A stretch of 64,000 bases of DNA from Gammaproteobacteria bacterium (GCA_965222155.1 CBDCTH010000001.1:1-64000), one strand, 5' to 3'. Shown: positions 34,398 to 59,830, counted from the stretch's first letter. Numbers and translations: made by a program. Notes: generated by a model not told the origin, from the letters alone.

Positions 34398-34416
34398 CCC
34401 ACGACAGGAGACTGCT

Positions 34417-37324: not shown

Positions 37325-37613
37325 GATGCCTTTCTCCTGTGCTGGTTTGACGTTACAGAGAATAATAGAAGCGCCGGGATATATCAAGTTCAATTTTCAT
37401 GCTGTCACTCCAAAGTTGCAATGTCCTCTTTTAACCTGCCTGGGGAGAGATATTTGTAACTTCTCAATAACCCCGTGCCTATTTCCGGGAGGGAGGGCGT
37501 CTCACCCTCCACGAGGGCAAGATGCCCTCGTTCAAACATTTGGGGTCAGAGTAAAAATACAGTCAGTTTGGCAAGTGGTAGTGGCTTATTGTTAAGTATT
37601 TTTACTCTGACCC

Positions 37614-41945: not shown

Positions 41946-42114
41946 GATGCCTTTCTCCTGTGCTGGTTTGACGTTACAGAGAATAATACAAGCGCCGGAA
42001 TATATCAAGTTCAATTTTCATGCTGTATTTCAAACTGAGACACTATCAGTTTCTCCATAATAAGGAATAGCATCCTAATCTCTGTCGATATATATTCTAA
42101 TCTTGAGACAAGCA

Positions 42115-42936
42115 CTATTTATGTGCATCGAGTAGGATCATGACTTCTCCTTTGCCGTTGTTCGCCAGGTCACCGGTATACATACGGACTTCAGGGCCGA
42201 AATTGCGGAAAAACCGGTAACGGCTTCCCATACGGGAAAGCTGTTTGAAAAACAGGCGCAGGTATTCCATCTTCAGCGTACCGCAGTTTGCCAAGGTAGC
42301 GCCGATCCGGTCAGGCCGCTTGCCCAGTATAATGGTCCCGCGTTTCATCCCGTAACCCGGGAGTTTGCCTGATTTACCCAGGATCAATATGGTGCCGGCC
42401 ACCATGCCGGCGCCGGAAAAGTTTCCTGCGTTGCCAGCGATCATGATCATCCCGCGCCGCATTTTATCACCGGTCCGATTTCCGGCATTGCCCCATACCG
42501 TGATCAGGCCGTCCTGCATTCCCTGCATGCTGGTTCGAGCCCCGGCCCCGATGTAATCGCCAGCATCGCCCTCGACGTCGATCCTGCCCCAGTGCATATC
42601 GCAGCCGAGCCAGTCGCCGCAACTGCCGTTGACCCTGATTGTGCCGCCTCTCATCCCGTGCCCGAGGTAACTGCCGCCATGGGCCTTGACGTTGAGGTGT
42701 CCCCGCGTCATGTCTGCGCCTATCCGGGTAACCAGTTCCGTAGTGCGGCGTAACTCAATATGCTCAGGGTTGTCTCCACTGATGGAAAACAGGTCTCCGG
42801 TTCTGGCCGGTGTTGAACCCAGGACCACTTCGATAGCGGCGATATTATCTGCGGCCGACAGTCTGTCCGGTGTCAGCGCAGATAAATCCAGCCGTTGGCG
42901 CGGCTTGTTCTTCAAGGTGAGTATCATGGGTTTCAT
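42115..42936 (-). CDS. fhcC: Formyltransferase/hydrolase complex subunit C
   Basis: GxxMxxGxIxVxG beta-helix repeats, GDKMRRG, GDLA..GKGE; operon position. Confidence 0.92.
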   Translation of the reverse strand: MKPMILTLKNKPRQRLDLSALTPDRLSAADNIAAIEVVLGSTPARTGDLFSISGDNPEHIELRRTTELVTRIGADMTRGHLNVKAHGGSYLGHGMRGGTIRVNGSCGDWLGCDMHWGRIDVEGDAGDYIGAGARTSMQGMQDGLITVWGNAGNRTGDKMRRGMIMIAGNAGNFSGAGMVAGTILILGKSGKLPGYGMKRGTIILGKRPDRIGATLANCGTLKMEYLRLFFKQLSRMGSRYRFFRNFGPEVRMYTGDLANNGKGEVMILLDAHK

Positions 42937-42951
42937 CTCAGGAACCTCTGA

Positions 42952-43860
42952 TCAAGTCGGTGTTTCTTTCAATATATCCCTGAGGTGGAAATGGTAAGGT
43001 CCCAGTTTTCCGCCATAGTTCCCTGCGCCGATCCGGTAGATGCCCTTGTCCGGTCCATTTTCGCAGACCGCCTCGATACCGGCGCGCATGGCTTCGCTGA
43101 TTGCGGCTTCATTCAAGCCGTCGATGACGATTTCCAGAACGGAACCGATCTCCTCCGTCAGCATGCTGTTTACCCGGCTTTTCAGGGTTGGGCAGAAGAC
43201 CTCATTTGTTGATGCCGGTAGAAAAGAGTATTTCGAGCCTACCTTGGAACCGGATCCGACAATCCCACCGGGAAACGTGGTGACTGCGCCGTCCACTCCG
43301 CGAATCGCCTTAACGGCTTTTTCACAGGCGCTCAGGCCGTGACGGGAAGTCTTTGCCATCACCAGGAAATTACCGCCGCCAATGGCAGGGACTACACCGG
43401 TGCTCTCTTCGCACAGGAATTCACCGTGCATGACCGGGATGCGCCAGTAGCGGATACCGTCCAGTATCTTTGATATCTGGTGACCGTCGCCGAAATATCT
43501 CAGGCTTTTACCCAGCGGCAACATGGTATCGCTATGGGTACCCGCAAAGCAGGCGCTGGTCGCGGTAGTCATTACGGATTGTCCGACGCGCCGGGTGAGT
43601 TGGTCGGCCAACTGCGATTTCGACATGGCAAACATGATGATCGCCACACCGGGCCTGCCGTCCGGGGTTTCTTCCGGCTTCAGTTCCCGTTCAATATCCG
43701 CCTCACAACCGCAGGCAATCACGGACGAGGCAAATCCGGTCAGGGAGTTGGCCGCGCGGTAAGCATACTTCATGGTCATGGCGGTAATGATCAGCCGGGT
43801 CGCCTTCATGGGAAATGCCTCGGCAAACGTATCGTCAATGCTTACGCCGTTTATTTTCAT
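42952..43860 (-). CDS. fhcD: Formylmethanofuran:H4MPT formyltransferase (Fhc subunit D)
   Basis: IDDTFAEAF, TPDGRPG, GGGNFL, GSKVGSKY, AGNYGGKLG. Confidence 0.95.
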   Translation of the reverse strand: MKINGVSIDDTFAEAFPMKATRLIITAMTMKYAYRAANSLTGFASSVIACGCEADIERELKPEETPDGRPGVAIIMFAMSKSQLADQLTRRVGQSVMTTATSACFAGTHSDTMLPLGKSLRYFGDGHQISKILDGIRYWRIPVMHGEFLCEESTGVVPAIGGGNFLVMAKTSRHGLSACEKAVKAIRGVDGAVTTFPGGIVGSGSKVGSKYSFLPASTNEVFCPTLKSRVNSMLTEEIGSVLEIVIDGLNEAAISEAMRAGIEAVCENGPDKGIYRIGAGNYGGKLGPYHFHLRDILKETPT

Positions 43861-43869
43861 AATTAAAAT

Positions 43870-45205
43870 CACTGCTGTCCCAAGAAAATCGTGTTGATAT
43901 AATATAACTCATTCATTTCATTAGTAAATAAGCGATTTTTAGCAGACATCGATTAAAACCACCCCTCCCCCGCTGGCTAATGCTACCCTCCTGATTTTTA
44001 TCATTATCAGGAGGAGCCATCATGCCGTCCGGTCACTATATCTTTTCTCAGGTCATGGCCCATTTGCCCATGAAACCATTCCGCCGCTGTGTCCAACGTT
44101 ATCACGGCAACCGTTATGTCAAATCCTTTACCTGTCTCGACCAGTTCCTCTGTATGGCATTCGCCCAACTCACTTACCGCGAGAGCTTGCGTGATATCGA
44201 AGTCTGCCTGCGCGCACACCGGGACAAACTCTATCATATGGGGCTACGCGGCGGCATGTCACGCAACACCCTCGCCCATGCCAACCCGCAGCGCGACGGG
44301 CGCCTCTACGCCGACTTTGCCCACGCCCTGATTCGCCTGGCCCGACCGCTGTATGCCGACGAAGACCTGGGGCTGGAACTCGATAATACCGTCTATGCCC
44401 TCGACTCCTCCACCATCGACCTGTGCCTGTCCGTGTTCCCCTGGGCGCACTTCCGTCAAACCAAAGCGGCTATCAAACTGCATACCTTGCTGGACTTGCG
44501 CGGCACTATCCCCACCTTTATACATCTCTCCGAGGGCAAACTGCACGATGTCAATGTCCTCGACCTGCTGCTGCCCGAGCCCGGCGCCTGCTACGTCATG
44601 GACCGCGCGTAGCTCGATTTCCAACGTCTGTTTGCCCTCAACATCGCCGCCGCCTTCTTCGTTATCCGGGCCAAGTCCAATACCCGTTACCGCCGCCGTT
44701 ATTCCCGACCGGTCGATAAAGCCACCGGCCTGCTGTGTGACCAGACCATCGTCCTGACCGGTGTCCGCGCCGCCACCCACTACCCACAACCACTGCGACG
44801 CATCAAATACCGCGACCCACAGACCCATAAGACGTTCGATTTCCTCACCAACCACTTTGCCTTGCCCGCACACACCATCACCGAGTTGTATCGCTATCGC
44901 TGGCAGGTCGAGTTGTTCTTCAAATGGATTAAACAACACCTGCGCATCAAAGCCTTCTTCGGCACCTCGGAGAACGCTGTCAAAACCCAAATCTGGACCG
45001 CCGTCAGTGTGTATGTCCTGGTGGCGCTCATAAAAAAACGTCTCCAACTGACTACGGAACTCTACACAATATTACAGGTTTTAAGCCTGACCCTGTTTGA
45101 AAAAATACCATTATATCAATTACTTATACAATCCGATTACAAAACAGACCACCGTGATATACTTAACCAGTTGAATTTATTCGATTAATTCTTGGGACAC
45201 TAGTG
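43870..45205 (+). mobile_element. IS4-family element; transposase (44022-45188) has a premature TAG at 44610
   Basis: TIRs CACTGCTGTCCCAAGAA / TTCTTGGGACACTAGTG; 9-bp target duplication AATTAAAAT; AQLTYRESLRDI, DSSTI, YRYRWQVELFFKWIKQHL. Confidence 0.93.
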
Positions 45206-45223
45206 AATTAAAATATTAAATAA

Positions 45224-45434
45224 ATCCGCAGATGACGCAGATTAACGCAGATGTATTCAGGTATTATTTGTGCCAATCTGCTGGTTATCATTCCCGCGTA
45301 ACCGGGAATCCGGTAAATAAACACTTCCTTGTCATAATGGGTTTTTTGTCTACTGTATGTCTGCATTCACGATGACAACCAGAAAGACATGAAACACTTA
45401 AAATAATCTGCGTTAATCTGCGTCATCTGCGGAT
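45224..45434. repeat. 29-bp perfect inverted repeat overlapping the fhcA 3' end
   Basis: ATCCGCAGATGACGCAGATTAACGCAGAT (45224-45252) and its complement (45406-45434). Confidence 0.8.
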
Positions 45435-47089
45435 AAATCCTGTTTGCAATCATGTACCAGCAGTGGATGTTGATTATATCCTTCCAGTTCATCCCGGCTG
45501 ATTTTGAAATTTTCCAGGTTCATGGTCATGTATCTGTCAAAATAGCGTTTCAGGGGTTTTTCTATGCCCCGGTCGTAATCCGGTTCGACCACGTGACTGC
45601 TGGTAGCCGGTATGGCGCAGACCTTGCCGTTCCTGACGCAGAGTTCGCCGCGTTTGAATACGTATTCCGGTCTGCTGAACATGGTCTCTGCGTTGTCATC
45701 AGGCTTATAGACGGTGATATCCGCCGTTGCCCCTATCCCCAGGTGGCCGAGGTTTCTCAGTCCCAGGCTCCTTGCCGGCGCAGCCCGGGTGAGAATAGCA
45801 ATTTCGTATAATGAATATTCCCGGTCGATTGAAGACAGGATGCTTGCGCTTGCGGCATCCTTGTTGATAGTGGCTAACATGTCGTTGCGAAATCCCTTGT
45901 CCATGAGCAGCCTTATCAAATGCGGATAGGAAGTAAATGGCGCGCCGTTCGGGTGATCGGTGGTCAGGAAAACACGCCAGGGGTCATTAATGAGTAAAAA
46001 TATTTCCAGGCCGATACACCACTGCAAGGCATTGACGAAATTTCTGTCCCGGTAGCGGAAAGGCACCACGCCACAGCCGGCATCGCATTCTATGTCCATG
46101 CAGACCCATTTTTTCGGATGGGCATGAATGTGACCCTTATGCTGCATCATGGTATCGGCGGATGCGGTAATCGTTTGGCCGAACATGATCTGGCCGACGT
46201 CAATGGATACGTTTCCGTTCCGGTTGACAGCCTCTGCTACCTGTGCTGCCGCGGACGAGAATTTCCTGTCCCCCTCCTGTCCGTAACTGTAGAATTGTAC
46301 ATGGGCCAGGTGTAACGGCTTGCCCTCCGCCGCGGCAATGGTGTCAAGTGTCGTCTGGTAATTGCCCGGTACCCCCAGGTTGCAGCCATGCACGTGCAGG
46401 GGATGAGGAACGCCGAGCTCGTCCAGTGCATCAAGCAGCGCGGCCATAATGTTACGGGGCGTTATTCCGTAACCGATGTTTTTTTCATCCAGGTCCAGCT
46501 TTCTCTGGTTGAACTTGAACGCGCTGATCCCGCCAGGGTTCACTACCTTGACGCCCATTGCCCGTGCGGCGTGGATTGTCCAGGCCACATAATCATTTAT
46601 CACGGACTGTTCTTTTTTGCCTTGCAGCAGGCGCAGCAGGAAATCGTCGTTGCCGAGCAGTACATAAGCGCCCGTGTCCAGCATGGGGGTATCCGCCATT
46701 TCCAGGTGTGACGGGCGGGCATTCACAGGCATCATCGCCGGTTCGAAACAGGTGGTATAGCCCATTTCGGCATAACGGTAGCCGGTGACAAAACTGGTAG
46801 GGGCAATAGTGCCGGAACCTGAGTGCGTCAAGGCGCTTGAGGCTACCGCACTGGTGCTATGGTCCTCCGCCAGTAATAACCTGGCGATATTGACCTTGCC
46901 CCCGCCGATGTGGGTATGGATATCGATACCGCCTGCCATGACGATGCGGCCGTTCAGGTCTATCAACTGGTGAATTTTTTGATCCGGCGCCGGTTTGACC
47001 AGCTTGCCATCCTGTACGTACAAGTCCATGATTTTGCCGTCTATCCCGTTGCATGGGTCATAGACCTTGCCGCCTTCGAGCTTGATCAT
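45413..47089 (-). CDS. fhcA: Fhc subunit A (amidohydrolase)
   Basis: DIHTHIGGGK, KVVNPGG, HVHGCNLG, TTDHPNG. Confidence 0.95.
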   Translation of the reverse strand: MIKLEGGKVYDPCNGIDGKIMDLYVQDGKLVKPAPDQKIHQLIDLNGRIVMAGGIDIHTHIGGGKVNIARLLLAEDHSTSAVASSALTHSGSGTIAPTSFVTGYRYAEMGYTTCFEPAMMPVNARPSHLEMADTPMLDTGAYVLLGNDDFLLRLLQGKKEQSVINDYVAWTIHAARAMGVKVVNPGGISAFKFNQRKLDLDEKNIGYGITPRNIMAALLDALDELGVPHPLHVHGCNLGVPGNYQTTLDTIAAAEGKPLHLAHVQFYSYGQEGDRKFSSAAAQVAEAVNRNGNVSIDVGQIMFGQTITASADTMMQHKGHIHAHPKKWVCMDIECDAGCGVVPFRYRDRNFVNALQWCIGLEIFLLINDPWRVFLTTDHPNGAPFTSYPHLIRLLMDKGFRNDMLATINKDAASASILSSIDREYSLYEIAILTRAAPARSLGLRNLGHLGIGATADITVYKPDDNAETMFSRPEYVFKRGELCVRNGKVCAIPATSSHVVEPDYDRGIEKPLKRYFDRYMTMNLENFKISRDELEGYNQHPLLVHDCKQDLSADDAD

Positions 47090-47228
47090 ACTGTCTCCCT
47101 GTTAATTTTCGTCACCCTTCCGGGCTTGATCCGGAATCCAGTCTGAACTTGCGTCGCTGAAAGAGTCGCATCTTTTCCTGGATTCCGGCATTCGCCGGAA
47201 TGACTGCTCAGCCTCATACATGGCTTGT

Positions 47229-48536
47229 TCATGTCAGATTGCCCTCTATACAAGAGATAATTTCCCTGATGACCCAGGCAGCGCTGCGAGAACCGCTATC
47301 CCTCACTTGTTTCAGGGGCATGTTGATGATGTTGTCCGTCCTGAACAGACTGCCGGTGTGGTCAATGCCGGGGATTCCCACTGGAATATAAACGTCGGCG
47401 TCTGTCGCTCCGGTTCGGTATGGGGATAAAATAATCGTGGGGACGTCTAACGCCGGAGGAGTGTCGTCCGTAAAGGTCGAGATCCATAACAAACTGTCCA
47501 CGGCAGATAGGTCCGTGTCGATGCCGGACGGGCATCCTGAACGGAAATTGACATCGGTCGGGAATCCGGTCTGCCAGGTCGCCACACTCTGGAACGATGC
47601 AGCGCCGTTACTGCCGCTGAGTGACAATCCGGCGAAGCGCTGCCTGGTGTTCAGGTCGCGCGCCAGGTCCAGTATTGAACTGATGATCAGGTCGGCGTGA
47701 TCCTGCGGCAGTGCTGCCGGGCACCATACCAGCACGCCATAGTCCGCATCCCGGATTATCCCGGCAACCTGGTTCAGTTTGCGGTTTTTTGCCGCCGGTA
47801 TAGTCTGGTAGTCAGACAGTTGTTCATCTGCCAGTTTGGTGCGCAACAACGCCAGGTTGTCGGCTATTTCATCACCGTGTCCGGAAACAACCACGGGAGC
47901 GTGGTCATTGAATTCATTCAACTCCTGCGTGCCGGGTCGGCCCAGGTAGGCCAGTTTCCTGTTTTTTGATGTGCGCCATCCCGGGCGCGCCCCCTTCGGG
48001 CGCCCTTCGGGCGTCCAAATCTGTTCCGGACAGATTTGTCCGACGAACAGGGAATAGGGGGTGTTGATGAAACGTTCAATGAACCGGGGATAATCCCCGG
48101 TAACGTTGTTACCGATAAAGATGATGGTATCCGCCCTGTTTTTCACCTCTGCCAGGGTGGTCATCATCCCGCCCCGGGTCTGTAGCGCTTTCAGGTTATG
48201 GCCGGCATGGTGTTTGTGTGCCTGCAGGAGAGCGGCATCGACCTTTTCGGCCAGCCGCAGGGCCGCGCGTATGCCGTCTACGTCGGTGCCGAGGCCGGCA
48301 ATCAACGGTTTGCCGGACTGTTGCAGAATCCTGGATGCGGCTGTTACAGCCTGGTCGATGGTAGTCGGAACGCCTTTCAGTCTTGCTTGCGCAGGAGGCA
48401 GGGGCGCAGCAAAACCCTGGCCGGCAAGCCGGCAGTCATTGGCGGATACGTCAAGCTGCTGCTGTTTGTTACGGACCGTCAGGTCATCACACAAAAGGCT
48501 GCAAAACGGGCAGGTTACATTCGCTATTGACGCCAT
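47229..48536 (-). CDS. fhcB: Fhc subunit B (methylotroph type, no Mo/W-ligating Cys)
   Basis: CPFCSLLCDDL, TTLAEVKNRAD, WQTGFP, PGIDH.G...R.D; no CHG motif. Confidence 0.9.
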   Translation of the reverse strand: MASIANVTCPFCSLLCDDLTVRNKQQQLDVSANDCRLAGQGFAAPLPPAQARLKGVPTTIDQAVTAASRILQQSGKPLIAGLGTDVDGIRAALRLAEKVDAALLQAHKHHAGHNLKALQTRGGMMTTLAEVKNRADTIIFIGNNVTGDYPRFIERFINTPYSLFVGQICPEQIWTPEGRPKGARPGWRTSKNRKLAYLGRPGTQELNEFNDHAPVVVSGHGDEIADNLALLRTKLADEQLSDYQTIPAAKNRKLNQVAGIIRDADYGVLVWCPAALPQDHADLIISSILDLARDLNTRQRFAGLSLSGSNGAASFQSVATWQTGFPTDVNFRSGCPSGIDTDLSAVDSLLWISTFTDDTPPALDVPTIILSPYRTGATDADVYIPVGIPGIDHTGSLFRTDNIINMPLKQVRDSGSRSAAWVIREIISCIEGNLT

Positions 48537-48551
48537 CTGGTGTTAATAAAT

Positions 48552-49925
48552 TCAGTCCAGCAGGGCCAGCATTTCGTCGATTGAGGTATATTTCTCCCTG
48601 GGTTTCCCTGCTGTCTGGCCGCGTGTGATTTCGGCGGCGTCGATTTTTTTCCAATCGGAGAAACTGATATGACGGACCCCGCGCCGGTCGAGAATTTCAC
48701 AACAACCTGCGGCGCCGCTTTTGCTCTCGCCGGTGTCCAGCTTGTTGATATCTTCCAGCATCATACCCACCGTCTCCACACTGTCCGCCTTGTTGGTGCC
48801 GATGATGCCGGTGGGACCGCGCTTAATCCAGCCGGCCGTGTATAACCCGTGGTCCACGGCGCCGTCCTTGATGATCCTGCCTTTATCGTTGGAAAAAACA
48901 CCGCGGGATTCATCAAACGGCACTCCGAACATGGGTATGCCGTGGTAGCCTATACTGCGAAAGACGATCCCGGCGTCAATAGTGAGCGTTTCTCCGCTGC
49001 CCCTCGCAGACTGCCGGAATGGTTCCCCTGACAAGGTGTTTTTTTCTATCAGCAGCCGTTCTACCCTGCCGTCGCCAAGCATTTCCCTGGGGCTCTTCAG
49101 GAAGGTAAAAATGCAGTGCTTGTCCGTGGTCAGTTCCCGGTCGGCAAAACCGCAGAACAGGTCATAGATTTTTTTACTGCCGGCATTGGTCTTGTCGGCC
49201 AGCTCTGTTTCGCTTTCCGGGTTTAACACCAGTTCGTTTGCATCAATCACCGGGTCGCAAGCAGCCAGCGCCCCGAACTCCTTCAACTCCTTGGAGGTGA
49301 ACTTGGCCTGTGCAGGACCGCGCCGGCCGATAACGTAGATGTTTTTGATTTTACTGTCAGCCAGTGCATCCAGGGCATGCTCGGCAATATCCGTGTGTTT
49401 TAATTCGTCAACGGTTTTGGCCAGGATCCGGCTTACATCGGCGGCAACATTCCCCTGGCCGATAATGACCGCCGTTTCGTGGGACAGGTCAAATTTCCGC
49501 TCGCGATAATCAGGATGGCCGTTATACCAGCCGACAAATTCCGTTGCCGTGTAGCTGCCCTGTAGGTCTTCTCCCGGGATGCCGAGACGGCGGTCGGTTT
49601 CGGCGCCGCAGGTCAGGATCAGCGCGTGATGGGTTGCCCGTAATTCGGCAATGCTGATGTCCTTGCCGGTGGTCACGTTTCCTATGTAATTGAACTGTTC
49701 CGCTTCAGCGATCCTGGCGTAGACGTTGATAACCTGTTTCAGTTTCGGGTGATCCGGCGCAACACCGCTCCTTACCAGGCCGTAGGGCACGGGCAGCCGT
49801 TCGAACATGTTAATCCTGACTTCGAGGTCGGCTTTGATGAGTGCATCAATGGCATAGAAGCCACTTGGACCGCTGCCGACTACGGCAACTATCAAGGGGT
49901 TGTTCCGGGTTCCTAATCGACTCAT
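48552..49925 (-). CDS. Ferredoxin:NADP+ reductase, adrenodoxin reductase/FprA type
   Basis: GSGPSGFY, PYGLVRSGVAPDH, FVGWYNGHP, GQGNVAADV, GWIKRGPTGIIG. Confidence 0.92.
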   Translation of the reverse strand: MSRLGTRNNPLIVAVVGSGPSGFYAIDALIKADLEVRINMFERLPVPYGLVRSGVAPDHPKLKQVINVYARIAEAEQFNYIGNVTTGKDISIAELRATHHALILTCGAETDRRLGIPGEDLQGSYTATEFVGWYNGHPDYRERKFDLSHETAVIIGQGNVAADVSRILAKTVDELKHTDIAEHALDALADSKIKNIYVIGRRGPAQAKFTSKELKEFGALAACDPVIDANELVLNPESETELADKTNAGSKKIYDLFCGFADRELTTDKHCIFTFLKSPREMLGDGRVERLLIEKNTLSGEPFRQSARGSGETLTIDAGIVFRSIGYHGIPMFGVPFDESRGVFSNDKGRIIKDGAVDHGLYTAGWIKRGPTGIIGTNKADSVETVGMMLEDINKLDTGESKSGAAGCCEILDRRGVRHISFSDWKKIDAAEITRGQTAGKPREKYTSIDEMLALLD

Positions 49926-49943
49926 GATTCACGTTATTGTATT

Positions 49944-50179
49944 TAACCCTGATATTGCGTCAGTGGATGTGCCCTCACTTGTCTTTTTTGCACTGGCGGG
50001 TACGTGCTTCCTCAACCAGACAAATCTGCCAGGAGCAGATTTGGACGTCCGCAGGGCGCCCGCAGGGGGCGCCCCAAGGATGGGGCGCATCAACTACGGC
50101 TATGCTTTCGGTCGCAGGCACCCGCCAGCACAAAAAATCCAGCGTGATCTTCACATCCACTGACACAATATCAGGGTTA
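49944..50179. mobile_element. MITE-like element with a nested palindromic insert
   Basis: TIRs TAACCCTGATATTG(C/T)GTCAGTGGATGTG; same core as 5863-6113 plus a ~70-bp insert at ~50020-50091. Confidence 0.75.
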
Positions 50180-50276
50180 GAAAGGAAAACGAATCCCGAC
50201 GACCCGCCGCCGCGCCGTACGGGTCAGTTCGGGGATGAAACAGCTAAACAGATTACAGGCTAGCCATATATGCGGG

Positions 50277-50582
50277 CTAGAAACCCAGAGCGGCTTTCTT
50301 TTCGTCCGCGCCGGGTAACGGATCCATGGTGTCGGCACAGACCGGGAGTACCTTGGATTTTTCCGCGTTGATGTCTATCCATTCGAATTTGTCTTCGGGC
50401 AGGTCATCTTCCTCATAGATGGCCTGGACCGGGCATTCCGGTAGGCATGCACTACAATCGATACAGACCTCCGGGTCTATATACAGCATCTCGTCGTCAT
50501 AGTGAAAACACTCCACCGGGCATACCGTGACGCAATCGGTATAACGACAGTCTTTACAGTTATCAGTTACGATGGTTGTCAT
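50277..50582 (-). CDS. FdxA-type dicluster ferredoxin
   Basis: CKDCRYTDCVTVCP and CIDCSACLPECP. Confidence 0.92.
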   Translation of the reverse strand: MTTIVTDNCKDCRYTDCVTVCPVECFHYDDEMLYIDPEVCIDCSACLPECPVQAIYEEDDLPEDKFEWIDINAEKSKVLPVCADTMDPLPGADEKKAALGF

Positions 50583-50636
50583 GATATTCTCCTATATAAG
50601 CTGTTCTGAAATAAGTCAACCCCGGCAGTCACGGTT

Positions 50637-51446
50637 CTATCCAGCATATAATAATATTTCTCCCCGGTTCAACTCAACACTGTCGCCACAGTAACGTTTG
50701 AATAAACCCTGCAGGTATTCTTCACCTATCGCAAAGACATCCATCAGGTGGAGCAGGTAAAGCATAATGTAACCTGGCCGGTAAGTACATGAATAGCTGA
50801 ATGTGGGCAGCAAATGTGCGCTCTTCAGACTGACGATGGTGCCCCGCTTCATGCCCGCCCCGGTCCGGATGCCGAGTTCTCCGAGTACAAAAATGCTACC
50901 GGAGAGCATATTGACCCCGGTGAAGTCACCGCTGTTGCCGGCAACGGCGATCAGCCCGTTGCGCATTGCATTGCCGGTCTCGTTTCGCACGTTGCCGTGA
51001 ATGATGATTTCCCCACCTTCCATGCCCATGGTTGCGCCCCGATAGGCACTCCCCACCATGTGGCCTGCATTGCCGTGAATCTCAATTCTGCCTCCGGACA
51101 TCTCCGGCCCGACCCAGTCGGCGGCATTGCCGATAACCCTGATTTCGCCCCCGCTCATGGCGGCCCCAAGGTGTTCGCCGACGTCACCTTCCACCTGGAT
51201 GGTCCCCCGTGACATACCGGCGCCGATAAGTTTTACCCGCCCCAGGTGGTCCCCCTGCACGTTGATGACCCCGTCGGACTGGCCTGTCACACTGAAGAAG
51301 TCACCGATATAACGGGCTTCACTGCCATGCATGACTTCCAGTTTTTCCACGCTTGCCGGTGTCTGGCCGGCGAACCGGGCAGGGGTGATGTTATCCGCCT
51401 CCAGGGGTACGTCCGGCGTTGCAATCTGTTTCAGTGATATAGGCAT
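50637..51446 (-). CDS. fwdC: Formylmethanofuran dehydrogenase subunit C
   Basis: VPLEAD.ITP, GSAYRG...GM.GG, GAGMKRGTI, LLPTFSYSC. Confidence 0.9.
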   Translation of the reverse strand: MPISLKQIATPDVPLEADNITPARFAGQTPASVEKLEVMHGSEARYIGDFFSVTGQSDGVINVQGDHLGRVKLIGAGMSRGTIQVEGDVGEHLGAAMSGGEIRVIGNAADWVGPEMSGGRIEIHGNAGHMVGSAYRGATMGMEGGEIIIHGNVRNETGNAMRNGLIAVAGNSGDFTGVNMLSGSIFVLGELGIRTGAGMKRGTIVSLKSAHLLPTFSYSCTYRPGYIMLYLLHLMDVFAIGEEYLQGLFKRYCGDSVELNRGEILLYAG

Positions 51447-51461
51447 ATCAACATCCTGTCA

Positions 51462-52346
51462 CTACAAGTTCAGTTCGTGCAGGTTAATCTTGTATTGTCC
51501 GAGGTTGCCCCCATAGTTGCCGGCGGTAATTTGCCTGATCCCCGGTTTTGCGGCGGCCTGGATGCCTGCAGCCATGGCTTGCTTCACTGCTTGTTCCGTC
51601 AGGCCGTCAATCACGATTTCAAGGGCGCAGTTGACGTCTGCCGGGAGGCTGCTGTCGGTTACCGCTTTCAGCGTGGGACAGTAGGCGTCATTGGTGGACG
51701 CGGGCAGGGTCTTGTAACGTGAACCCACTTTGCTGCCACTGCGCACGACGCCATTGGGAAAGGGCAGGATAATATCTTTTATCGCTCCCATGGCCCGGGT
51801 GGCTGCGCCGGCCGCAGCCAGGGTTTTTTTCTCATCCGTTCCCAGTATGATGATATTACCTCCACCTACTGCCTGCTGTACGGCAAACGATTCTTCCACG
51901 GTAAACTCACCATCCATGACCGGGATACGCCAGAAACGCCGCTCTGCCAGCTTCTTGCTGCCCTGGAAACCATCGCCGAAATAACGCAGTAGTGAACCTA
52001 CCTGGACTATCTCATCACCATCCAGGCCGTTGAAACAAGCCGTAGTCGGGCAGGTCATCACGCATTGGCCGATACGTTCAAGCAGGCGCTTGCCCACCGA
52101 TGCTTTGTCCATGGCGAATAACAGGATGCTGACGCCTGGCCGACGGTCCGGGGTCTGATCGGATGACAGAAAGCCCTCAATGCCGGCCTCACATTTACAG
52201 CCGATCACCGAGGTGGCAAACCCGGTCATCGATTGCGCCGCGGCCTGGCACCACTGTTTGGTCGCCGCGGTGACGATCACCCGCGCCCCCCACATTTTGA
52301 AGGCCTCGGCAAAAGTTCCGACAATTTCAGTTGACCTGATTTTCAT
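51462..52346 (-). CDS. ftr: Formylmethanofuran:H4MPT formyltransferase, second copy
   Basis: TFAEAF, RIGQCVMTCPT, VRSGSKVGSRY, AGNYGGNLG. Confidence 0.95.
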   Translation of the reverse strand: MKIRSTEIVGTFAEAFKMWGARVIVTAATKQWCQAAAQSMTGFATSVIGCKCEAGIEGFLSSDQTPDRRPGVSILLFAMDKASVGKRLLERIGQCVMTCPTTACFNGLDGDEIVQVGSLLRYFGDGFQGSKKLAERRFWRIPVMDGEFTVEESFAVQQAVGGGNIIILGTDEKKTLAAAGAATRAMGAIKDIILPFPNGVVRSGSKVGSRYKTLPASTNDAYCPTLKAVTDSSLPADVNCALEIVIDGLTEQAVKQAMAAGIQAAAKPGIRQITAGNYGGNLGQYKINLHELNL

Positions 52347-53986
52347 TCTGATACCGTTGCGATTACTTCATGGTCATGCAGGTAACTGTCATTGACTGCA
52401 TAATTGGGGAATTCGATAGAATAATAACTCTCAAAAAACGGCCTTACTTCTGCGACTATGGATTCATCGTATTCAGGTTCCGTATGCAGGAATTTCCCGT
52501 AGAAATCCCGGCGGAACTCGTGGTTTTCGATAATGACGTTACCTGATTTGATCACGTAACGGGGCGCGTTGAACATGGCCTCCTTATCGTCCATTTCATC
52601 GTAGATGGTGATGTCCGCATCGGCGCCCGGCCCCAGGTGGCCTTTGTTTTTCAGGTTCAGAGCCCGGGCCGGTCCGGCGCGGGTAATGATGGCTATCTCA
52701 TTGAGTGTATATTCACGCTCCAGTTCATTCAATAAGGTGCCGTTAACGGCTTTCTGGTTGACGCGCTTGATTTCCTCCTTGCGGAATTCCTTGTCCATCA
52801 GCAGGCGGATCAGCTTTGGGTAACTCATAAAGGAACCACCGTTCGGATGATCAGTGGACAGAACGATACGCCAGGGGTCTTTTGACAGCAGGAACAATTC
52901 CAGGCCGATGGCCCATTGCAGGGCATGAACATAGACATGTTCCTGGTAGCTGAACGGAACGATGCCACAACCGCTTTCGCACTCCGTATCGGCATTTACC
53001 CATTTCGCTTTTTTGAAGCCCCTGAGCATATAGGCCAGTGGCGCGTCCGCAGTCATGATCGTGGCTTTACCGAACATGACTTGGCCGACGTCGCAGGTGA
53101 TATTGGGGTGGTCGTTAACGTACTCGGCGATCTGCCGGGACGCGGATTTAGGGTTCTTGCCGGGCTCTCCCGCGTAGCTGTGGAACTGTATATGGGCCAG
53201 GTGCACGCGCCTGTCGCCGGCCGTTCTCATGGTCTCCAGGGTAGTCTCGAAGTTGCCGCTATGGCCCAGGTTGTTGCAGTGAATATGGGGCGGATGCGGT
53301 AAACCCAATTCATTCACTGTTTCAATAAATGCATCGATAACCTGTCGGGGTGAGACTTCTATGACTTCACTTTTTTCATCGATATTCTTGACGTTGGAGT
53401 TCTTTTTACCCTTCCAGGGCTCATCTCCGCCCGGGTTCACCAGTTTGGCCGTGTAGGCCTTGGTTGCGTTGATCCACCAGGCTACTGCGTGACGGAATTC
53501 CTGTTTACGCCCGGCCTTGAGCAATTGCTGCAAAAAAATATTATTGCCCAGCAGCACGTAAAATCCCTTATCTATAACCGGCGTATCGTGGAATTCTTCA
53601 ATAGTATGGCGGGCGCCGATAGGAGTGACGGCCGCTTCCATGGCGGTCGTGTAGCCCAGGGTGGCATAACGGTATCCCGTTGCAAAGGTGGAAGGAACGG
53701 TGCCGCCGGCGCCGGACCGGGTGTGTTCCGTAGCGGGGTGGGGGTCACGGCGGTGGTCTTCGGGCTGCAGTTTCCTGGCCAGGTTTACCTTGGGGCCGGC
53801 TATGTGGCAGTGGATATCCACGCCGCCGGGCATTACCACCATGCCGCTGACGTCAATTCTCAAGGGTTTGGAGGTAGGAGTTTCGACTATGCGTCCCTGC
53901 TCCAGATAAAGGTCCTTTATTTCCCCGTCAATGCCGTTGGCTGGGTCATGAACCTTGCCCCCTGTAAGTTGAATGCACTCCGTCAT
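52343..53986 (-). CDS. fwdA: Formylmethanofuran dehydrogenase subunit A
   Basis: DIHCHIAGPKVN, KLVNPGG, HIHCNNLG, HIQFHSY, STDHPNGG. Confidence 0.93.
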   Translation of the reverse strand: MTECIQLTGGKVHDPANGIDGEIKDLYLEQGRIVETPTSKPLRIDVSGMVVMPGGVDIHCHIAGPKVNLARKLQPEDHRRDPHPATEHTRSGAGGTVPSTFATGYRYATLGYTTAMEAAVTPIGARHTIEEFHDTPVIDKGFYVLLGNNIFLQQLLKAGRKQEFRHAVAWWINATKAYTAKLVNPGGDEPWKGKKNSNVKNIDEKSEVIEVSPRQVIDAFIETVNELGLPHPPHIHCNNLGHSGNFETTLETMRTAGDRRVHLAHIQFHSYAGEPGKNPKSASRQIAEYVNDHPNITCDVGQVMFGKATIMTADAPLAYMLRGFKKAKWVNADTECESGCGIVPFSYQEHVYVHALQWAIGLELFLLSKDPWRIVLSTDHPNGGSFMSYPKLIRLLMDKEFRKEEIKRVNQKAVNGTLLNELEREYTLNEIAIITRAGPARALNLKNKGHLGPGADADITIYDEMDDKEAMFNAPRYVIKSGNVIIENHEFRRDFYGKFLHTEPEYDESIVAEVRPFFESYYSIEFPNYAVNDSYLHDHEVIATVSE

Positions 53987-54015
53987 ATTGTCTGCATAGG
54001 CGCCGCGGCTTTGTT

Positions 54016-54210
54016 AGCCCGTATTTCGCACCAGGTGATGCGCCCTCGCTTGTCTTTGTGCCGCCAGCGGGCACGTGTTCATTGCGCCCATCCCCCTGCT
54101 CAACTCCATACAGGGGCAGGCTCTGGGCGCAACCCTGCGGGCGGCCTGTGCCGTGCAAATTGTCTGTCCTGACGATTTGTCATCGCATCACCTGGTGCGA
54201 AATACGGGCT
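54016..54210. mobile_element. MITE-like element with 27-bp TIRs and a nested insert, overlapping the fwdB 3' end
   Basis: AGCCCGTATTTCGCACCAGGTGATGCG and its complement at 54184-54210. Confidence 0.75.
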
Positions 54211-55547
54211 GCGCCGGTTGTTCCTCTGGCCTGGCCTTTTGCCAGCACCAGTTCACGCACGCGTTTTTTGATTGCCGTCAGAATTTCCTCATCGGTCGGG
54301 AAAGGTGAGTCAAAGGCTTTACGCAAGGTGATGGGCACGTCGTCCATGCGGTAGACGGTGCCGGCCGTGTTAATGCCGTAGGTGGATGTCCGGAACGCCA
54401 CGTGCGCCAGCTTGCTGGTTATGGTGGTTTTGGTGTCCAGACATACAAAAGGAATTTTTGCCAGGTGGTCAATGGCCGCCTGGGGAAAATTGGATGCGGG
54501 GTCGGTGGCTATGATCAAGGCAGCATCGGCATCCCGCTTGGACAGCAAATCAACGGTGGTGAACTCGCCCGGGTTGAAACGGGGGAAACCACGGCTGAAA
54601 TTGACGCCGAAGGGATAACCGGTCTGCCAGGACATGACGTTATCGGCGCCGGTTACATTGCCATGGCCCCGCACAGGCTTGGCAACAAAATGGGTATATT
54701 CGTTCAGGTCCGTGGCCAGGGCCAGCAGGGCGCCTGAATTAAAGTGCCGGCCGCGGGTCATGGTCAGGCCCATGCCGAAAAACAACACGCCGTAGCGGCA
54801 CGCTTTCATCCTGTCGACCAGTTCCTCCAGGGTTTCCAGGCTGACCCCGGTAATTTCTTCGATATCGGGGTCTATCCTGCGGCTTTTGACCAATGCGCGT
54901 AACGCCCATAATACTTCAAAGTCCTTGCCAGGCTTCACCTGGATAAACTGGTTGGCTGCCGGTGTGCTGGGTGTCCTGCGTACGTCAACCAGGACTACAT
55001 GCCGATCTTTTTTGCCGCGGGGCGTGAACATTCCTTTGGCTGTGACCGCATAGCGGCCAAAGTGGCGCGGGTGGGATTCGGCCGGATTGCCGCCCCAGTA
55101 AATGACCAGGTCGGCGCGGTTTTTCACCTCGCCCAGAGTCATGGTGCTTTCACCCACTCCCTGGAGGGCAATGCCCGATGGCCCGTGGCAGACAGAAGTC
55201 GTAGTATCAATGTTGCCCTTGATGATATCGGCAATGGCTACGGCTTGCTTTTGCGCCTCACAGGTGGTGTCGCTGAGACCGTAAGTGATAGGGAACCTGG
55301 CGTTGACCAGGGTCCTGGCGGCTTCTTCCACGGCTTCATCAATGGAGACAGGCTGATTATCAATCAGCGCGGCAGGTGCGCCTTCTTCTATGTAGTGTTC
55401 CGCAAACCAGGCGCGGCCGAGTACGCAGGCGTTTTTCGCCTTGATAATGCGCTTTTTGTCCAGGTCCACCGTCAGTATCATGTCGTCACAGACACAACCA
55501 CAGAAAGTACAGGTGGCATTTTCTACAACTTTGATGTTTTCACTCAT
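54180..55547 (-). CDS. fwdB: Formylmethanofuran dehydrogenase subunit B (Mo/W-pterin catalytic subunit)
   Basis: CTFCGCVCDD...C [4Fe-4S] motif, SVCHGPS, TLGEVKNRAD, WGGNPAESHPRH, RGHGNV, RFNPGEFT, YRMDDVP. Confidence 0.93.
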   Translation of the reverse strand: MSENIKVVENATCTFCGCVCDDMILTVDLDKKRIIKAKNACVLGRAWFAEHYIEEGAPAALIDNQPVSIDEAVEEAARTLVNARFPITYGLSDTTCEAQKQAVAIADIIKGNIDTTTSVCHGPSGIALQGVGESTMTLGEVKNRADLVIYWGGNPAESHPRHFGRYAVTAKGMFTPRGKKDRHVVLVDVRRTPSTPAANQFIQVKPGKDFEVLWALRALVKSRRIDPDIEEITGVSLETLEELVDRMKACRYGVLFFGMGLTMTRGRHFNSGALLALATDLNEYTHFVAKPVRGHGNVTGADNVMSWQTGYPFGVNFSRGFPRFNPGEFTTVDLLSKRDADAALIIATDPASNFPQAAIDHLAKIPFVCLDTKTTITSKLAHVAFRTSTYGINTAGTVYRMDDVPITLRKAFDSPFPTDEEILTAIKKRVRELVLAKGQARGTTGAARISHQVMR

Positions 55548-55579
55548 GATTTCTCCCCACGGAATCGCGGCAAGCTATT

Positions 55580-55924
55580 TTAACTGATTTTTTCCACCTG
55601 GACAGAAATATGTTTTGACAGGGGCATGCCGCTGCCGGCGGTATCGCTCTCCATCAGGCGGCTGGAAGTAGGGCCATAGGCGATGAAGATCATGCCCTGA
55701 GGCAGGTCGGTGGCTTTTTTTGGAACACAGGTAACAACGACCTCGCCGATATGATTTTTCAGACGCAGCTTATCGCCGCTGTCGAAACCAAGACGGGCCA
55801 TATCATCCGCATTTATTTCAACGGTGGATGTGACTTCCCGATACTCGTCGCCGAGTTTTCCCTTGTTAAGGGAAGTCCCTTGCTTACTGGATCGTCCCGG
55901 GATCAACAACATGGTTACAGGCAT
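55580..55924 (-). CDS. fwdD: Formylmethanofuran dehydrogenase subunit D (molybdopterin dinucleotide-binding)
   Basis: GRS.KQG, EIN.DDM..LG...GD, GMIFIAYGP, T.GSGMP..K; first gene of the operon. Confidence 0.88.
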   Translation of the reverse strand: MPVTMLLIPGRSSKQGTSLNKGKLGDEYREVTSTVEINADDMARLGFDSGDKLRLKNHIGEVVVTCVPKKATDLPQGMIFIAYGPTSSRLMESDTAGSGMPLSKHISVQVEKIS

Positions 55925-56074: not shown

Positions 56075-56150
56075 CTTAGAATTTATGGTTGTCCCGTATT
56101 AGAATATCCCCGCTTAGAATTTATGGGTGTCCCAAATTAGAATATCCCCG
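56075..56150. repeat. 38-bp direct repeat x2 between divergent fwdD and mptG
   Basis: CTTAGAATTTATGG(T/G)TGTCCC(GT/AA)ATTAGAATATCCCCG twice. Confidence 0.8.
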
Positions 56151-56164
56151 TGCTTTTGAAGAAG

Positions 56165-57127
56165 ATGAAACAACAAGACATCGCTGTTGCCGAAACGGTG
56201 AGGGTTGCCGCGGCAGCCCGCCTGCACCTGGGTTTCCTGGATTTGAATAGTGGGTTGGATAGGCGTTACGGCAGTATCGGGCTCGGGATAACGGGTTTCT
56301 CCACGGTGGTGAATGTCTGCCATAGCAACTGGCTGGACATCAACGGAGCGGATGATGAATATATCGCCCGGATTACGGAAACCGTCCTGGATTATTTCCG
56401 CATAAATTCCGGGGTCAGGGTTGAAGTTGAAGAGCATATTCCCCGTCACCAGGGTCTGGGTTCCGGTACCCAGATGGCATTGGCATTGGGTACTGCCATT
56501 ACTGGCCTGTACGGTATCGATACCACAGTTGAAGAACTTGCGATCGCAACAGGAAGAGGTGCGCGTTCCGGAGTAGGGTTGGGGGTGTTCAAGGAGGGTG
56601 GTTTCATTCTCGATAGCGGCAAAGCCGGGGGGCACAGGTTGCCGACGCTGATATTCCGCCACGACTTTCCTGAAGAATGGCAGTTTGTCCTGGTGATGGA
56701 TGAACGGGCCAAGGGGATAAACGGGATGGAAGAGATAGAAGCGTTCAATACATTGCCGAACAAGTCCTCCGAAGCAAGCGCGGAGATTTGCCAACAGGTA
56801 TTGATGCAGATGCTACCGAGTATTATAGAGAAGGATTGCAGTCAGTTCGGTGCATCTGTCAGCAGGATACAGGCGCGCATGGGCGAATATTTCAGCGCTG
56901 CCCAGGGAGGCCTGTTTGCCAGCGATAATGTCAAACAAACGCTTGAATTCCTTTTGGAAAACAAGGCAACCGGCGTCGGCCAGACATCCTGGGGGCCGAC
57001 CGGGTTTGCCGTATTCCCGGACAAGAAATCGGCAATGCAGGTCATGGACAATTTTGCCGGGCGGGATCCTAAGGTAACACTCCGGGTTGCCGGAGCGCGA
57101 AACAGTGGAGCCCGAAGCAGCAGGTGA
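56165..57127 (+). CDS. mptG: beta-Ribofuranosylaminobenzene 5'-phosphate synthase
   Basis: ARLHLGFLDL, IPRHQGLGSGTQ, RGARSGVG, GGFILDSG, GQTSWGPTGF. Confidence 0.92.
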   Translation: MKQQDIAVAETVRVAAAARLHLGFLDLNSGLDRRYGSIGLGITGFSTVVNVCHSNWLDINGADDEYIARITETVLDYFRINSGVRVEVEEHIPRHQGLGSGTQMALALGTAITGLYGIDTTVEELAIATGRGARSGVGLGVFKEGGFILDSGKAGGHRLPTLIFRHDFPEEWQFVLVMDERAKGINGMEEIEAFNTLPNKSSEASAEICQQVLMQMLPSIIEKDCSQFGASVSRIQARMGEYFSAAQGGLFASDNVKQTLEFLLENKATGVGQTSWGPTGFAVFPDKKSAMQVMDNFAGRDPKVTLRVAGARNSGARSSR

Positions 57128-57852
57128 TCTTCGGGGTCGGACCAACGTAATCTATTGATATTGTTATATAAAATGTTGCTTATAGGTCTGATTTAAGGCT
57201 TAGAACACTTTTTTGACGGTGAAAAACATCACTTTAAGACAGAGTAACAGGCTACGACGGTAAGCGATATTTCTTATAATGCCCATTTTCATGACAAAAA
57301 TTGCATTTTAAGGTTAAAACAAGCCATATATAGAAGTATAAACTAATAAAATCAAATAGTTATCCAGGTCCGACCCCACAGCCCGACAGCCTCAGCCCCC
57401 CCAGCCGGGAGCAACTCCCGGGATCGAGAGCATCCTGCCCTCGTGGAGGGCGAGACGCCCTCCCTCCCGGGGAAACATGCCCCTTTATGGTCAGAATATG
57501 CCCGAATCCGGCAAGCATCACTGTGACTCTTGGGGGACAGATTTAAATCTGTCCCCTGTGTCTTGTTGACATCGATTTAGCGGGAGCCGCTGGAAAGATT
57601 ATAAACATCTGGACATTTACCGGCATTGTTGTACAATCAACACTCTTGTCCGCAGTGTATGAAGTGATGCGGGTAGCTCATGTGGGGCCGGACGTTTCGC
57701 TGATTATCGACTGGATGATTGCAGTCAAATGGTTACGACTCGCATTTTTGGTCTTGCATATCCCGGGGTTCTACCCTGTTCGGATAATTCCGTGAATAGT
57801 TGGTGGCCGGTAAAGGCCGCATATTAATACAAGTTATGCAACTGTCAGTGAT

Positions 57853-58848
57853 ATGAGAAATTTTGACGCAGAAGAAAAAAACCTGAGCATCAACCACCTG
57901 ATCGCTCCTAAGGTAAATCAATTAATCAACTTTGCCCCCGGGCTCGGATTGAGTACCAGTCTCACGACAAATGGAAGTTTAATGATAGACGCGGGCATCG
58001 AGAGGTGTGGCAGTATTGAGGCCGGCAGGCAGATTGCCGAAATCTGTCTCGGAGGGCTGGCTACTGCGAGATTGCGGGCTTCGCGGGACTATGAAAACTG
58101 GCCATGGCAAGTGGATGTTCATACCAGCCATCCGGTGATTGCCTGTTTAGCCAGCCAATATGCCGGTTGGAGCCTTTCCAACGGCAAGGGTAAGGGCACA
58201 TTCAACGCGTTAGGATCCGGCCCAGCCAGGGCCCTTGGCAGTAGAGAACCATTATTTGATGAAATCGGTTATAGAGACAAGGCGGACAAAACCTGTATCG
58301 TATTGGAAGTTGATAGTATTCCGCCGGATGATATTGCCGATAAAATTGCAAACCGGTGCCAGGTTGTGCCGGAGAACCTCACGCTTATCCTGACCCCTAC
58401 TTCTAGTCTGGCCGGTGCAGTACAGGTTGTCGCCCGGGTGTTTGAGTCTGCATTACACAAGGCCCACACAATGCATTTTCCCCTGGAAAGAATTATAGAC
58501 GGTATGGGCACCGTCCCCCTGTGTCCCCCTGCGCCGGACTTTCTGACAGCCATGAGCCGTACCAATGATGCAATTTTATTCGGGGGTCATGTCCATTTGT
58601 TTGTCAATGCGGGTAAAGAAGATGCAGAGGCGCTGGCCCGTGCGTTGCCAAGTAATACTTCAGAAGACTACGGCAGGCCTTTTGCCGAGGTATTTAAAAG
58701 TGTTAACTTTGATTTCTACAAGCTTGATCCCATGTTGTTCAGCCCGGCCCGGGTTACCGTCAGCTCTCTCAAGACAGGGCATTCGTTTCAGGCAGGAGAG
58801 ATCAATCTGCCGGCCTTGAACAAATCATTCACCACTGTATTCAACTAA
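57853..58848 (+). CDS. mch: Methenyl-H4MPT cyclohydrolase
   Basis: ACLASQYAGW, GSGPARAL, TNDAILFGG, DFYKLDPMLFSPA. Confidence 0.96.
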   Translation: MRNFDAEEKNLSINHLIAPKVNQLINFAPGLGLSTSLTTNGSLMIDAGIERCGSIEAGRQIAEICLGGLATARLRASRDYENWPWQVDVHTSHPVIACLASQYAGWSLSNGKGKGTFNALGSGPARALGSREPLFDEIGYRDKADKTCIVLEVDSIPPDDIADKIANRCQVVPENLTLILTPTSSLAGAVQVVARVFESALHKAHTMHFPLERIIDGMGTVPLCPPAPDFLTAMSRTNDAILFGGHVHLFVNAGKEDAEALARALPSNTSEDYGRPFAEVFKSVNFDFYKLDPMLFSPARVTVSSLKTGHSFQAGEINLPALNKSFTTVFN

Positions 58849-58878
58849 GCCGGACAGTAATACCCGGGATAACCCGGC

Positions 58879-59712: not shown

Positions 59713-59830
59713 GATGTCAGTCGTGACTGTTGGAGTGGGAGATGGTTGATAGACCTTATGGAGGTTTATTATGTTTAAAATTCTTGAAAAACTTACTGGT
59801 ATTTTTAAAGCAGAAGAAGGAGGTAATGAT

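Follow-up and report, generated by a model that had tools for sequence, protein, structure and literature searches.

Do two sets of genes for the last carrier-bound step of formaldehyde oxidation linked to tetrahydromethanopterin (H4MPT) encode two separate enzymes in one bacterium? The question is raised by a stretch of 64,000 nucleotides from Gammaproteobacteria bacterium (GCA_965222155.1, CBDCTH010000001.1:1-64000), hereafter the window, in which eleven genes follow one another on the minus strand at 42115-55924, in the order fwdD-fwdB-fwdA-ftr-fwdC-ferredoxin-flavoprotein-fhcB-fhcA-fhcD-fhcC, with an insertion sequence (IS) between fhcA and fhcD. The genes were identified by matches to Pfam and NCBIfam models, and all eleven were found where an initial annotation of the window had placed them, on the same strand and with agreeing families (Table 1). 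That annotation had described an intact, archaeal-like formyl-methanofuran dehydrogenase (Fwd) next to a formate-releasing Fhc complex. Two distinct sets, with an intact-site Fwd beside Fhc, were indeed observed, whereas the rarity of the tandem was not borne out. We propose that the Fwd set probably encodes a molybdenum/tungsten (Mo/W) formyl-methanofuran dehydrogenase which would work in the oxidative direction and pass its electrons through a ferredoxin and an FprA-type reductase to NADP+, in parallel to the formate-releasing Fhc.

The two B subunits fall on either side of the 328-bit cut-off of TIGR03129, FwdB above and FhcB below (scores in Table 1). FwdB matched the solved archaeal FwdB/FmdB chains over the whole length (E values of 2.6e-116, 1e-113 and 1.4e-111; about 55% identity). 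In M. wolfeii FwdB, catalysis is assigned to Cys118, His119 and Arg288 (Hemmann 2019, PMC6926001), and Cys120, His121 and Arg293 of the window FwdB align to them, the Arg being located in an RGH stretch. The SVCHGPS motif was found in FwdB and is missing from FhcB, and the alignment also showed the four cysteines of the N-terminal iron-sulfur (Fe-S) motif, Cys13, Cys16, Cys20 and Cys41. The Cys-His-Arg residues are conserved in 165/165 FwdB-type orthologs, and 163 of these retain the complete set of seven cluster and active-site residues, the remaining two being N-terminally truncated. Among 122 full-length B homologs, comprising 120 representatives of a 50%-identity library and the two window proteins, only 16 have Cys-His-Arg, the window FwdB among them, and nearly all have the four cysteines. 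For 39 genomes with both types, the median identity to the window protein is 79% for FwdB and 36% for FhcB; between the same genomes, FhcB has diverged much more than FwdB.

A separate D subunit had been assigned to the Cys-His B copy, and the 114-aa open reading frame (ORF) in question bears this out, with all five of its PDB matches being FwdD chains (best E value 4.6e-17). FwdD caps the pterin site in the archaeal enzyme (Hemmann 2019, PMC6926001). The metal ligands of the A subunit (HxH, Lys181, His231, His262 and Asp379) were invariant in 80/80 A sequences, both window copies included. The window FwdA scored 475 bits with archaeal FwdA versus 366 with Methylorubrum FhcA, and FwdC scored 164 bits with the archaeal subunit versus 132 with Methylorubrum FhcC. 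An AlphaFold model of FwdC (predicted local distance difference test score of 96) gave template modelling scores of 0.89 to 5t5i_C and 0.92 to 6s6y_C; since it fits the archaeal FwdC and the Methylorubrum FhcC about equally, the model does not decide whether Ftr sits on FwdC. With the Fe-S cysteines, the Cys-His-Arg site, the D subunit and the A ligands, the Fwd set shows all the sequence features by which a redox-competent Fwd is recognised.

The second set is of a different kind. In FhcB the positions of M. wolfeii Cys118, His119 and Arg288 are occupied by His, Ala and Ser, which marks this B subunit as Fhc type. Cys-His-Arg was found in 0/44 FhcB orthologs. The best PDB matches of FhcA and FhcC are both Methylorubrum chains (6s6y_A with 457 bits, the best archaeal chain reaching 412; 6s6y_C with 147 bits, 5t5i_C reaching 120), so the assignment of this set to Fhc, with Methylorubrum Fhc as its closest solved relative, was upheld. 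The Methylorubrum FhcB is described as lacking the Fe-S domain (Hemmann 2019, PMC6926001). The window FhcB retains all four N-terminal Fe-S cysteines, and since these are also present in 43/44 FhcB orthologs and in most of the 122 B homologs, the loss of the domain looks like a peculiarity of Methylorubrum and not a rule of the Fhc family.

The paralogs in the window share 46% (A), 27% (B), 34% (C) and 50% (formyltransferase) identity. In a maximum-likelihood tree of 80 A subunits, 17 FhcA and 63 FwdA sequences, the archaeal ones included among the latter, were split by a branch of 1.04 with 100% support in the Shimodaira-Hasegawa-like approximate likelihood ratio test. Forcing the 33 gammaproteobacterial A sequences to be monophyletic, a group chosen after inspection of the tree, cost 485 log-likelihood units (p = 0.0001 in the approximately unbiased test). 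The formyltransferase tree (60 rows) showed the same two clades with 99% and 98% support; fhcD fell in the FhcD clade at 99%, and the window ftr grouped apart from it with other operon-embedded ftr genes. The two window B proteins were far apart in a FastTree phylogeny, in which FhcB is on a very long branch, so its position there is unsure. A recent duplication of the two sets was ruled out by the low identities, the split in the A tree and the constrained test; the initial annotation had likewise described the A, B, C and formyltransferase copies as divergent. Identities and trees place the Fwd and Fhc sets as old paralogs.

The clade of the window FwdA (38 rows, 99% support) contains Gamma-, Alpha- and Betaproteobacteria, Gemmatimonadota and one metagenome-assembled genome (MAG) labelled Ardenticatenaceae. 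The A tree assigns the Fwd set to a bacterial lineage of its own, common to Proteobacteria and Gemmatimonadota; the set is archaeal-like in its chemistry, as had been suggested, but not a fresh import from archaea. Within the clade Gemmatimonadota stand beside Betaproteobacteria, which suggests horizontal spread. Two loci labelled Ardenticatenaceae (L086) and Mycobacterium (L283) have FwdB proteins 71-77% identical to the proteobacterial type and represent either horizontal transfer or mis-binned contigs.

In the mechanism that we propose, two separate enzymes would serve the last carrier-bound step. Fae, MtdB and Mch would bring formaldehyde to formyl-H4MPT. On the Fhc route, FhcD would move the formyl group to the furan carrier and FhcA would free formate, which could go to formate dehydrogenase or to formate-tetrahydrofolate ligase. 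On the Fwd route, the operon's own Ftr would take the formyl group off formyl-H4MPT and place it on the furan carrier, FwdA would hydrolyse the formyl carrier, and the formate would then be oxidised to CO2 at the predicted Mo/W-bis(pyranopterin guanine dinucleotide) (bisPGD) site of FwdB/FwdD. The electrons would pass from the [4Fe-4S] cluster of FwdB to the 7Fe ferredoxin, then to the FprA-type reductase and finally to NADP+. At the level of sequence the reading of two enzymes is well supported; we infer that the cofactor is loaded, that Fwd runs oxidatively, that ferredoxin and FprA carry its electrons to NADP+, and that the two complexes divide the labour between them.

The genome behind the window (4.55 Mb in 12 contigs, 100% complete, 7.3% contaminated) was consistent with these routes. 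A search for Mo cofactor genes, as the initial annotation had called for, found MobA (244 bits) and ModA (153 bits), and the genome has the means to build the cofactor. The genome also has several molybdopterin enzymes, among them a formate dehydrogenase alpha subunit (751 bits), as well as formate-tetrahydrofolate ligase (875 bits), an MtdB-like gene and a pyrroloquinoline quinone-dependent alcohol dehydrogenase (599 bits, above the family cut-off). In Methylorubrum, formate goes to CO2 or into the folate pathway, and by its gene content this host could send formate either way.

The initial annotation had singled out the tandem as the unusual feature of the locus, a view that the distribution of the genes does not sustain. 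Four locus scans, each covering the best 80 of more than 530 matches (320 rows), were pooled into 176 distinct FwdB-type records. The first scan gave 80 species-level loci, all of them MAGs, and most of those with enough flank have the same eleven-gene order. Among 101 records from Gammaproteobacteria or unclassified Proteobacteria, fwdD was present in 98 and the ferredoxin/FprA pair in 73; where at least 8.5 kb followed fwdB, 33 of 63 such records had at least two fhc genes in the locus. Both sets were also found interleaved in 7/19 Gemmatimonadota records and in one alphaproteobacterial record, in the orders fhcB-fhcA-fhcD-fwdD-B-A-ftr-C-fhcC and fhcB-fhcA-[fwdD-B-A-ftr-C-fdx-fnr]-fhcD-fhcC. 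In an even sample of the host's family (101 genomes, G000 included; B matches at E <= 1e-25, FwdB type defined as full-length with at least 491 bits), a B match was detected in 86 genomes and the FwdB type in 73, of which 65 had a further B match. Hence the tandem is the rule in its own family and recurs in other phyla; it has been conserved in a large group of uncultured bacteria and is not a singular event. In the remaining family genomes, only the FhcB type was found in 13 and no B match in 15, nine of the latter belonging to one genus. Across the class, an even sample showed the FwdB type in 16/301 gammaproteobacterial genomes, from about 12 of about 230 families, or in 13/298 when three unpublished genomes (G144, G246 and G400) were left out.

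Among the matches listed in the 320 rows, the proteobacterial and Gemmatimonadota carriers included no cultured methylotroph; the records that were neither MAGs nor uncultured were Desulfosporosinus lacus DSM 15449 and Ca. Hakubella, neither with fhc nearby. In a scan centred on a Methylococcales MAG (again the best 80 of more than 530 matches), eight rows were Methylococcales MAGs and none was a cultured methanotroph, down to the last row at 70% identity. Several Methylococcales loci (L217, L218, L225, L236 and L250-L254) have a Cys-His fwdB, fwdA, ftr and fwdC but lack a fwdD ORF directly upstream, and in four of these records fhcD occupies that place. More distant fwdD-B-A-ftr-C operons were found in Actinomycetota, Anaerolineales, Desulfobacterota, Clostridia, D. 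lacus DSM 15449, Synergistaceae, Methylomirabilota, Bathyarchaeota and Hadesarchaea, with the ferredoxin/FprA pair or a neighbouring fhc in 0 of the loci listed. Methylomirabilota contributed three loci with fwdD and a Cys-His-Arg FwdB, one of them with the full operon. Of ten clusters of Cys-His B representatives, two carry names, Methanoculleus and Hodarchaeales. Seven B proteins of 570-640 aa (P0124, P0129, P0131, P0147, P0148, P0190 and P0232) are extended by about 140 residues at the N-terminus and have Cys-His-Arg intact; the P0147 cluster is named as a Methanoculleus B/D fusion, and the long proteins are probably D-B fusions.

Not all carriers keep both sets. A single A subunit, of Fwd type, is encoded on each of four complete chromosomes of 1.8-2.0 Mb, from two Ca. 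Porisulfidus, one Ca. Oxydemutatoraceae and one other gammaproteobacterium. A fifth genome has both sets, 275 kb apart. In genus g33, which has small genomes, five of seven genomes in the family survey had the FwdB type only, and one FhcB-type gene in that genus is interrupted by a single in-frame TAA (G088). The reverse is seen in another family genome, where it is the FwdB-type gene that is decaying and lies in two adjacent pieces, covering model positions 2-194 and 198-421 (G089).

In the window itself, the IS element is flanked by 41-nt terminal inverted repeats and lies in a gap of 1552 bases between fhcA and fhcD. Alignment with the same-genus loci L009 and L011 showed that it is missing at this site in both, and that it sits a few bases upstream of the conserved fhcD ATG at 43860; the GTG at 43872 is therefore probably not the start of fhcD. 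A second copy with 99.9% identity is found at C12:2746535-2747862, so the insertion is recent. Lying directly upstream of fhcD, it may weaken the Fhc half in this genome. One could then argue that both complexes are real but serve as condition-specific alternatives, depending on oxygen, Mo/W supply or one-carbon (C1) load, or that Fhc is being lost here after the insertion, with Fwd as the sole working route. The Fwd-only lineages and the stop codon in G088 agree with this, as do, conversely, the 13 family genomes with the FhcB type only and the split fwdB of G089. However, fhcD and fhcC are still intact open frames, and 65 of the 73 FwdB-carrying family genomes have kept a second B copy, which speaks for a long-standing use of both. 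We regard this explanation as unlikely.

The electron route depends on the two genes that follow fwdC. The flavoprotein matched M. tuberculosis FprA (1lqt) with an E value of 2.4e-104 over residues 10-454 and adrenodoxin reductase (1cjc) with 4e-101. The protein earlier labelled ferredoxin-NADP reductase (FNR) is of the type of FprA and adrenodoxin reductase and not of the plant type. The ferredoxin resembles Azotobacter 7Fe ferredoxin I, with E values of about 1e-30 to the FdI structures and two cysteine groups. It could be that the pair is not the outlet of Fwd and serves another purpose, such as supplying electrons to the FhcB Fe-S cluster or to some unrelated enzyme. The gene fnr is 351 bases from fdx and only 15 bases from fhcB, so it may be co-transcribed with fhc instead of fwd; FhcB has kept its four Fe-S cysteines, and just 3/19 Gemmatimonadota loci have the pair. 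On the other hand, the proteobacterial loci in which the pair follows fwdC include lineages without fhc in the locus, and in four genomes without fhc on the whole chromosome, and in betaproteobacterial loci it is directly upstream of fwdD. On this evidence another role for the pair seems quite unlikely, and transfer of electrons from Fwd to NADP+ remains the reading that we prefer.

The direction of the Fwd reaction was considered in the same way. The CO2/formyl-methanofuran couple lies at about -530 mV, which makes oxidation downhill and the reverse reaction with NADPH, far too weak a donor for this couple, implausible. The alternative is that the Fwd set runs reductively as in methanogens, fixing CO2 into the formyl carrier and feeding H4MPT-bound C1 units to assimilation. 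Enzymes of this family are reversible, and methanogens use them for reduction (Hemmann 2019, PMC6926001); in the genome formate-tetrahydrofolate ligase is present while the RuBisCO large subunit was not found. Yet the sole partners encoded are the 7Fe ferredoxin and the NADPH-linked reductase; no hydrogenase, bifurcating module or polyferredoxin is present within the cluster, and the neighbouring fae, mch and H4MPT biosynthesis genes are typical of formaldehyde oxidation. A reductive role is thus very unlikely, and for oxidation there is a precedent in an archaeal Fwd that runs in this direction and hands its electrons to an acceptor other than ferredoxin (Lemaire 2024, PMC11493965). That the Fwd set is redox-dead, with no pterin loaded, and acts as a second formyltransferase/hydrolase isoenzyme only would fit the loss of the site in most bacterial B homologs, but it is highly improbable given the near-complete retention of the seven residues at positions that FhcB leaves free to vary, the persistence of fwdD and the stronger conservation of FwdB.

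Several observations weigh against the proposed oxidative enzyme. A scan of the cluster for promoters and terminators gave chance level only, and the spacing of fnr given above belongs here as well. FwdD scored 78.5 bits with NF042908, under the cut-off of 175, and the ferredoxin reached 112 bits with NF045490 (FdxA), under 135. No ORF for the polyferredoxin FwdF/G was found in the cluster with Pfam and NCBIfam, although this is an accessory feature outside the catalytic core. In the eight Methylococcales MAGs, no fwdD ORF immediately precedes the gene for the Cys-His FwdB. For the small Fwd-only genomes MobA has no diagnostic value, since 2-4 other molybdopterin enzymes are encoded in each of them. 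Finally, archaeal Fwd enzymes are usually oxygen-sensitive, and the hosts here look aerobic.

Compared with known systems, the window resembles methanogen FwdABCD(FG) (M. wolfeii, PDB 5T5I) and the F420-reducing Fwd of Ca. Ethanoperedens (PDB 8RJA) in having A, B, C and D subunits and in the conserved Fe-S cysteines, Cys-His-Arg and FwdA metal ligands of its sequences. It differs from them in that the host is a bacterium of aerobic look, the cluster is without polyferredoxin, FwdE or FwdH genes, ftr has its place within the operon, after fwdA and before fwdC, a soluble 7Fe ferredoxin and an NADPH reductase of FprA type would be the partners, and the active-site residue is Cys and not selenocysteine. 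With Methylorubrum extorquens FhcABCD (PDB 6S6Y), it shares the fhcB-A-D-C order, the best matches of FhcA and FhcC and an FhcB without the three catalytic residues; the window FhcB keeps the four-cysteine N-terminal motif that the Methylorubrum protein lacks, and its operon is split by the IS and lies directly downstream of a full Fwd set. The fwdDBA-ftr-fwdC operons of NC10 (Methylomirabilota), Firmicutes, Synergistetes and Hakuba Actinobacteria (the last from Merino 2020, PMC7325909) have the same gene order and a Cys-His FwdB with a D subunit, but those listed are without the ferredoxin/FprA pair and a neighbouring fhc, and the window set is in a separate clade with 99% support.

In its treatment of fwdD, Chistoserdova 2016 (PMC5020050) places the homolog in Archaea, Synergistetes, Firmicutes and NC10 and not in Planctomycetes or Proteobacteria, and the relevant statement in Wells 2020 is that bacterial FwdB/FmdB representatives are absent. 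By contrast, our data show an intact-site FwdB/FwdD that is well conserved in Gammaproteobacteria, usually next to Fhc. A full-text literature search found no paper that treats Fwd and Fhc together in one cluster of Proteobacteria or Gemmatimonadota; Adam et al. 2019 may bear on the point. Automatic annotation already labels such proteins 'formylmethanofuran dehydrogenase subunit B', so the genes are visible in databases, where nothing sets them apart from Fhc.

The features of the locus are listed in Table 1. From fwdD through fhcA, the intergenic gaps are 32, 193, -4, 15, 54, 351, 15 and 139 bases, and fhcD and fhcC are 15 bases apart; thus fwdD ends 32 bases upstream of fwdB, and ftr overlaps fwdA by 4 bases. 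An island of H4MPT genes diverges from the fwdD side and continues with more such genes past fae. Its mptG, mch, CitG-like and fae genes recur as neighbours in most related loci.

Table 1. Genes of the two-set cluster, the inserted element and the divergent H4MPT island
Feature	Position	Strand	Description
fwdD	55580..55924	-	114 aa; capping subunit (fourth domain), Mo/W pterin site; PF01568 41 bits
fwdB	54180..55547	-	455 aa; predicted Mo/W-bisPGD catalytic subunit, N-terminal [4Fe-4S] motif; TIGR03129 509 bits
fwdA	52343..53986	-	547 aa; amidohydrolase subunit (formyl-methanofuran hydrolysis or synthesis); TIGR03121 702 bits
ftr	51462..52346	-	294 aa; formylmethanofuran:H4MPT formyltransferase; FTR + FTR_C domains, NF002554 432 bits
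fwdC	50637..51446	-	269 aa; beta-helix subunit; TIGR03122 251 bits
7Fe (FdxA-type) ferredoxin (fdx)	50277..50582	-	101 aa; proposed FwdB electron acceptor; NF045490 112 bits
FprA/adrenodoxin-reductase-type NADPH:ferredoxin reductase (fnr)	48552..49925	-	457 aa; 1lqt, 1cjc full-length matches
fhcB	47229..48536	-	435 aa; scaffold-type B subunit; TIGR03129 224 bits
fhcA	45413..47089	-	558 aa; formyl-methanofuran hydrolase subunit; TIGR03121 752 bits
IS element	43886..45229	+	about 1.34 kb; DUF4372 + DDE transposase (Pfam), frame broken into several ORFs
fhcD	42952..43860	-	Fhc formyltransferase subunit; FTR + FTR_C domains, NF002554 441 bits
fhcC	42115..42936	-	273 aa; Fhc beta-helix subunit; TIGR03122 232 bits
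beta-RFAP synthase (mptG)	56150-57127	+	Pfam/NCBIfam; divergent H4MPT island 56150..60343
mch	57853-58848	+	Pfam/NCBIfam; H4MPT island
CitG-like gene	58879-59712	+	Pfam/NCBIfam; H4MPT island
fae	59771-60343	+	Pfam/NCBIfam; H4MPT island

Elsewhere in the window, four near-copies of a gene with a weak Hjc-type nuclease domain (207-228 aa) were found on the minus strand at 30204-30848, 36770-37393, 38704-39390 and 41349-42014. They share 89-96% mutual identity with short indels, and each has 26 tblastn matches genome-wide. An IS21-type pair at 32856-35175 consists of an IstA-like transposase (513 aa) and an IstB ATPase (272 aa), and mobile or defence-like genes lie near it: AAA_14/DUF4143 at 27361-28665, Uma2 at 31357-32190 and an ORC/Cdc6-like ATPase at 39875-41020. 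The G+C content is low (0.41-0.46) at 12001-16000 and 0.49-0.59 in the rest of the window.

From these sequence comparisons we tentatively suggest, as a possibility short of an even expectation, that fwdDBA-ftr-fwdC with the ferredoxin and FprA may form a self-contained, horizontally mobile and oxygen-compatible module of aerobic bacteria, which would oxidise the carrier-bound formyl group to CO2, yield NADPH and bypass free formate, standing beside Fhc in most carriers and replacing it in genome-reduced lineages. Provided that the Fwd set is active, many marine, soil and symbiont bacteria that are still uncultured would have a second way to finish formaldehyde oxidation, one that avoids formate. 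This would call for changes to models of C1 flux and of how Fhc evolved from Fwd, and the enzyme would be a candidate for an oxygen-compatible catalyst of CO2/formyl interconversion.

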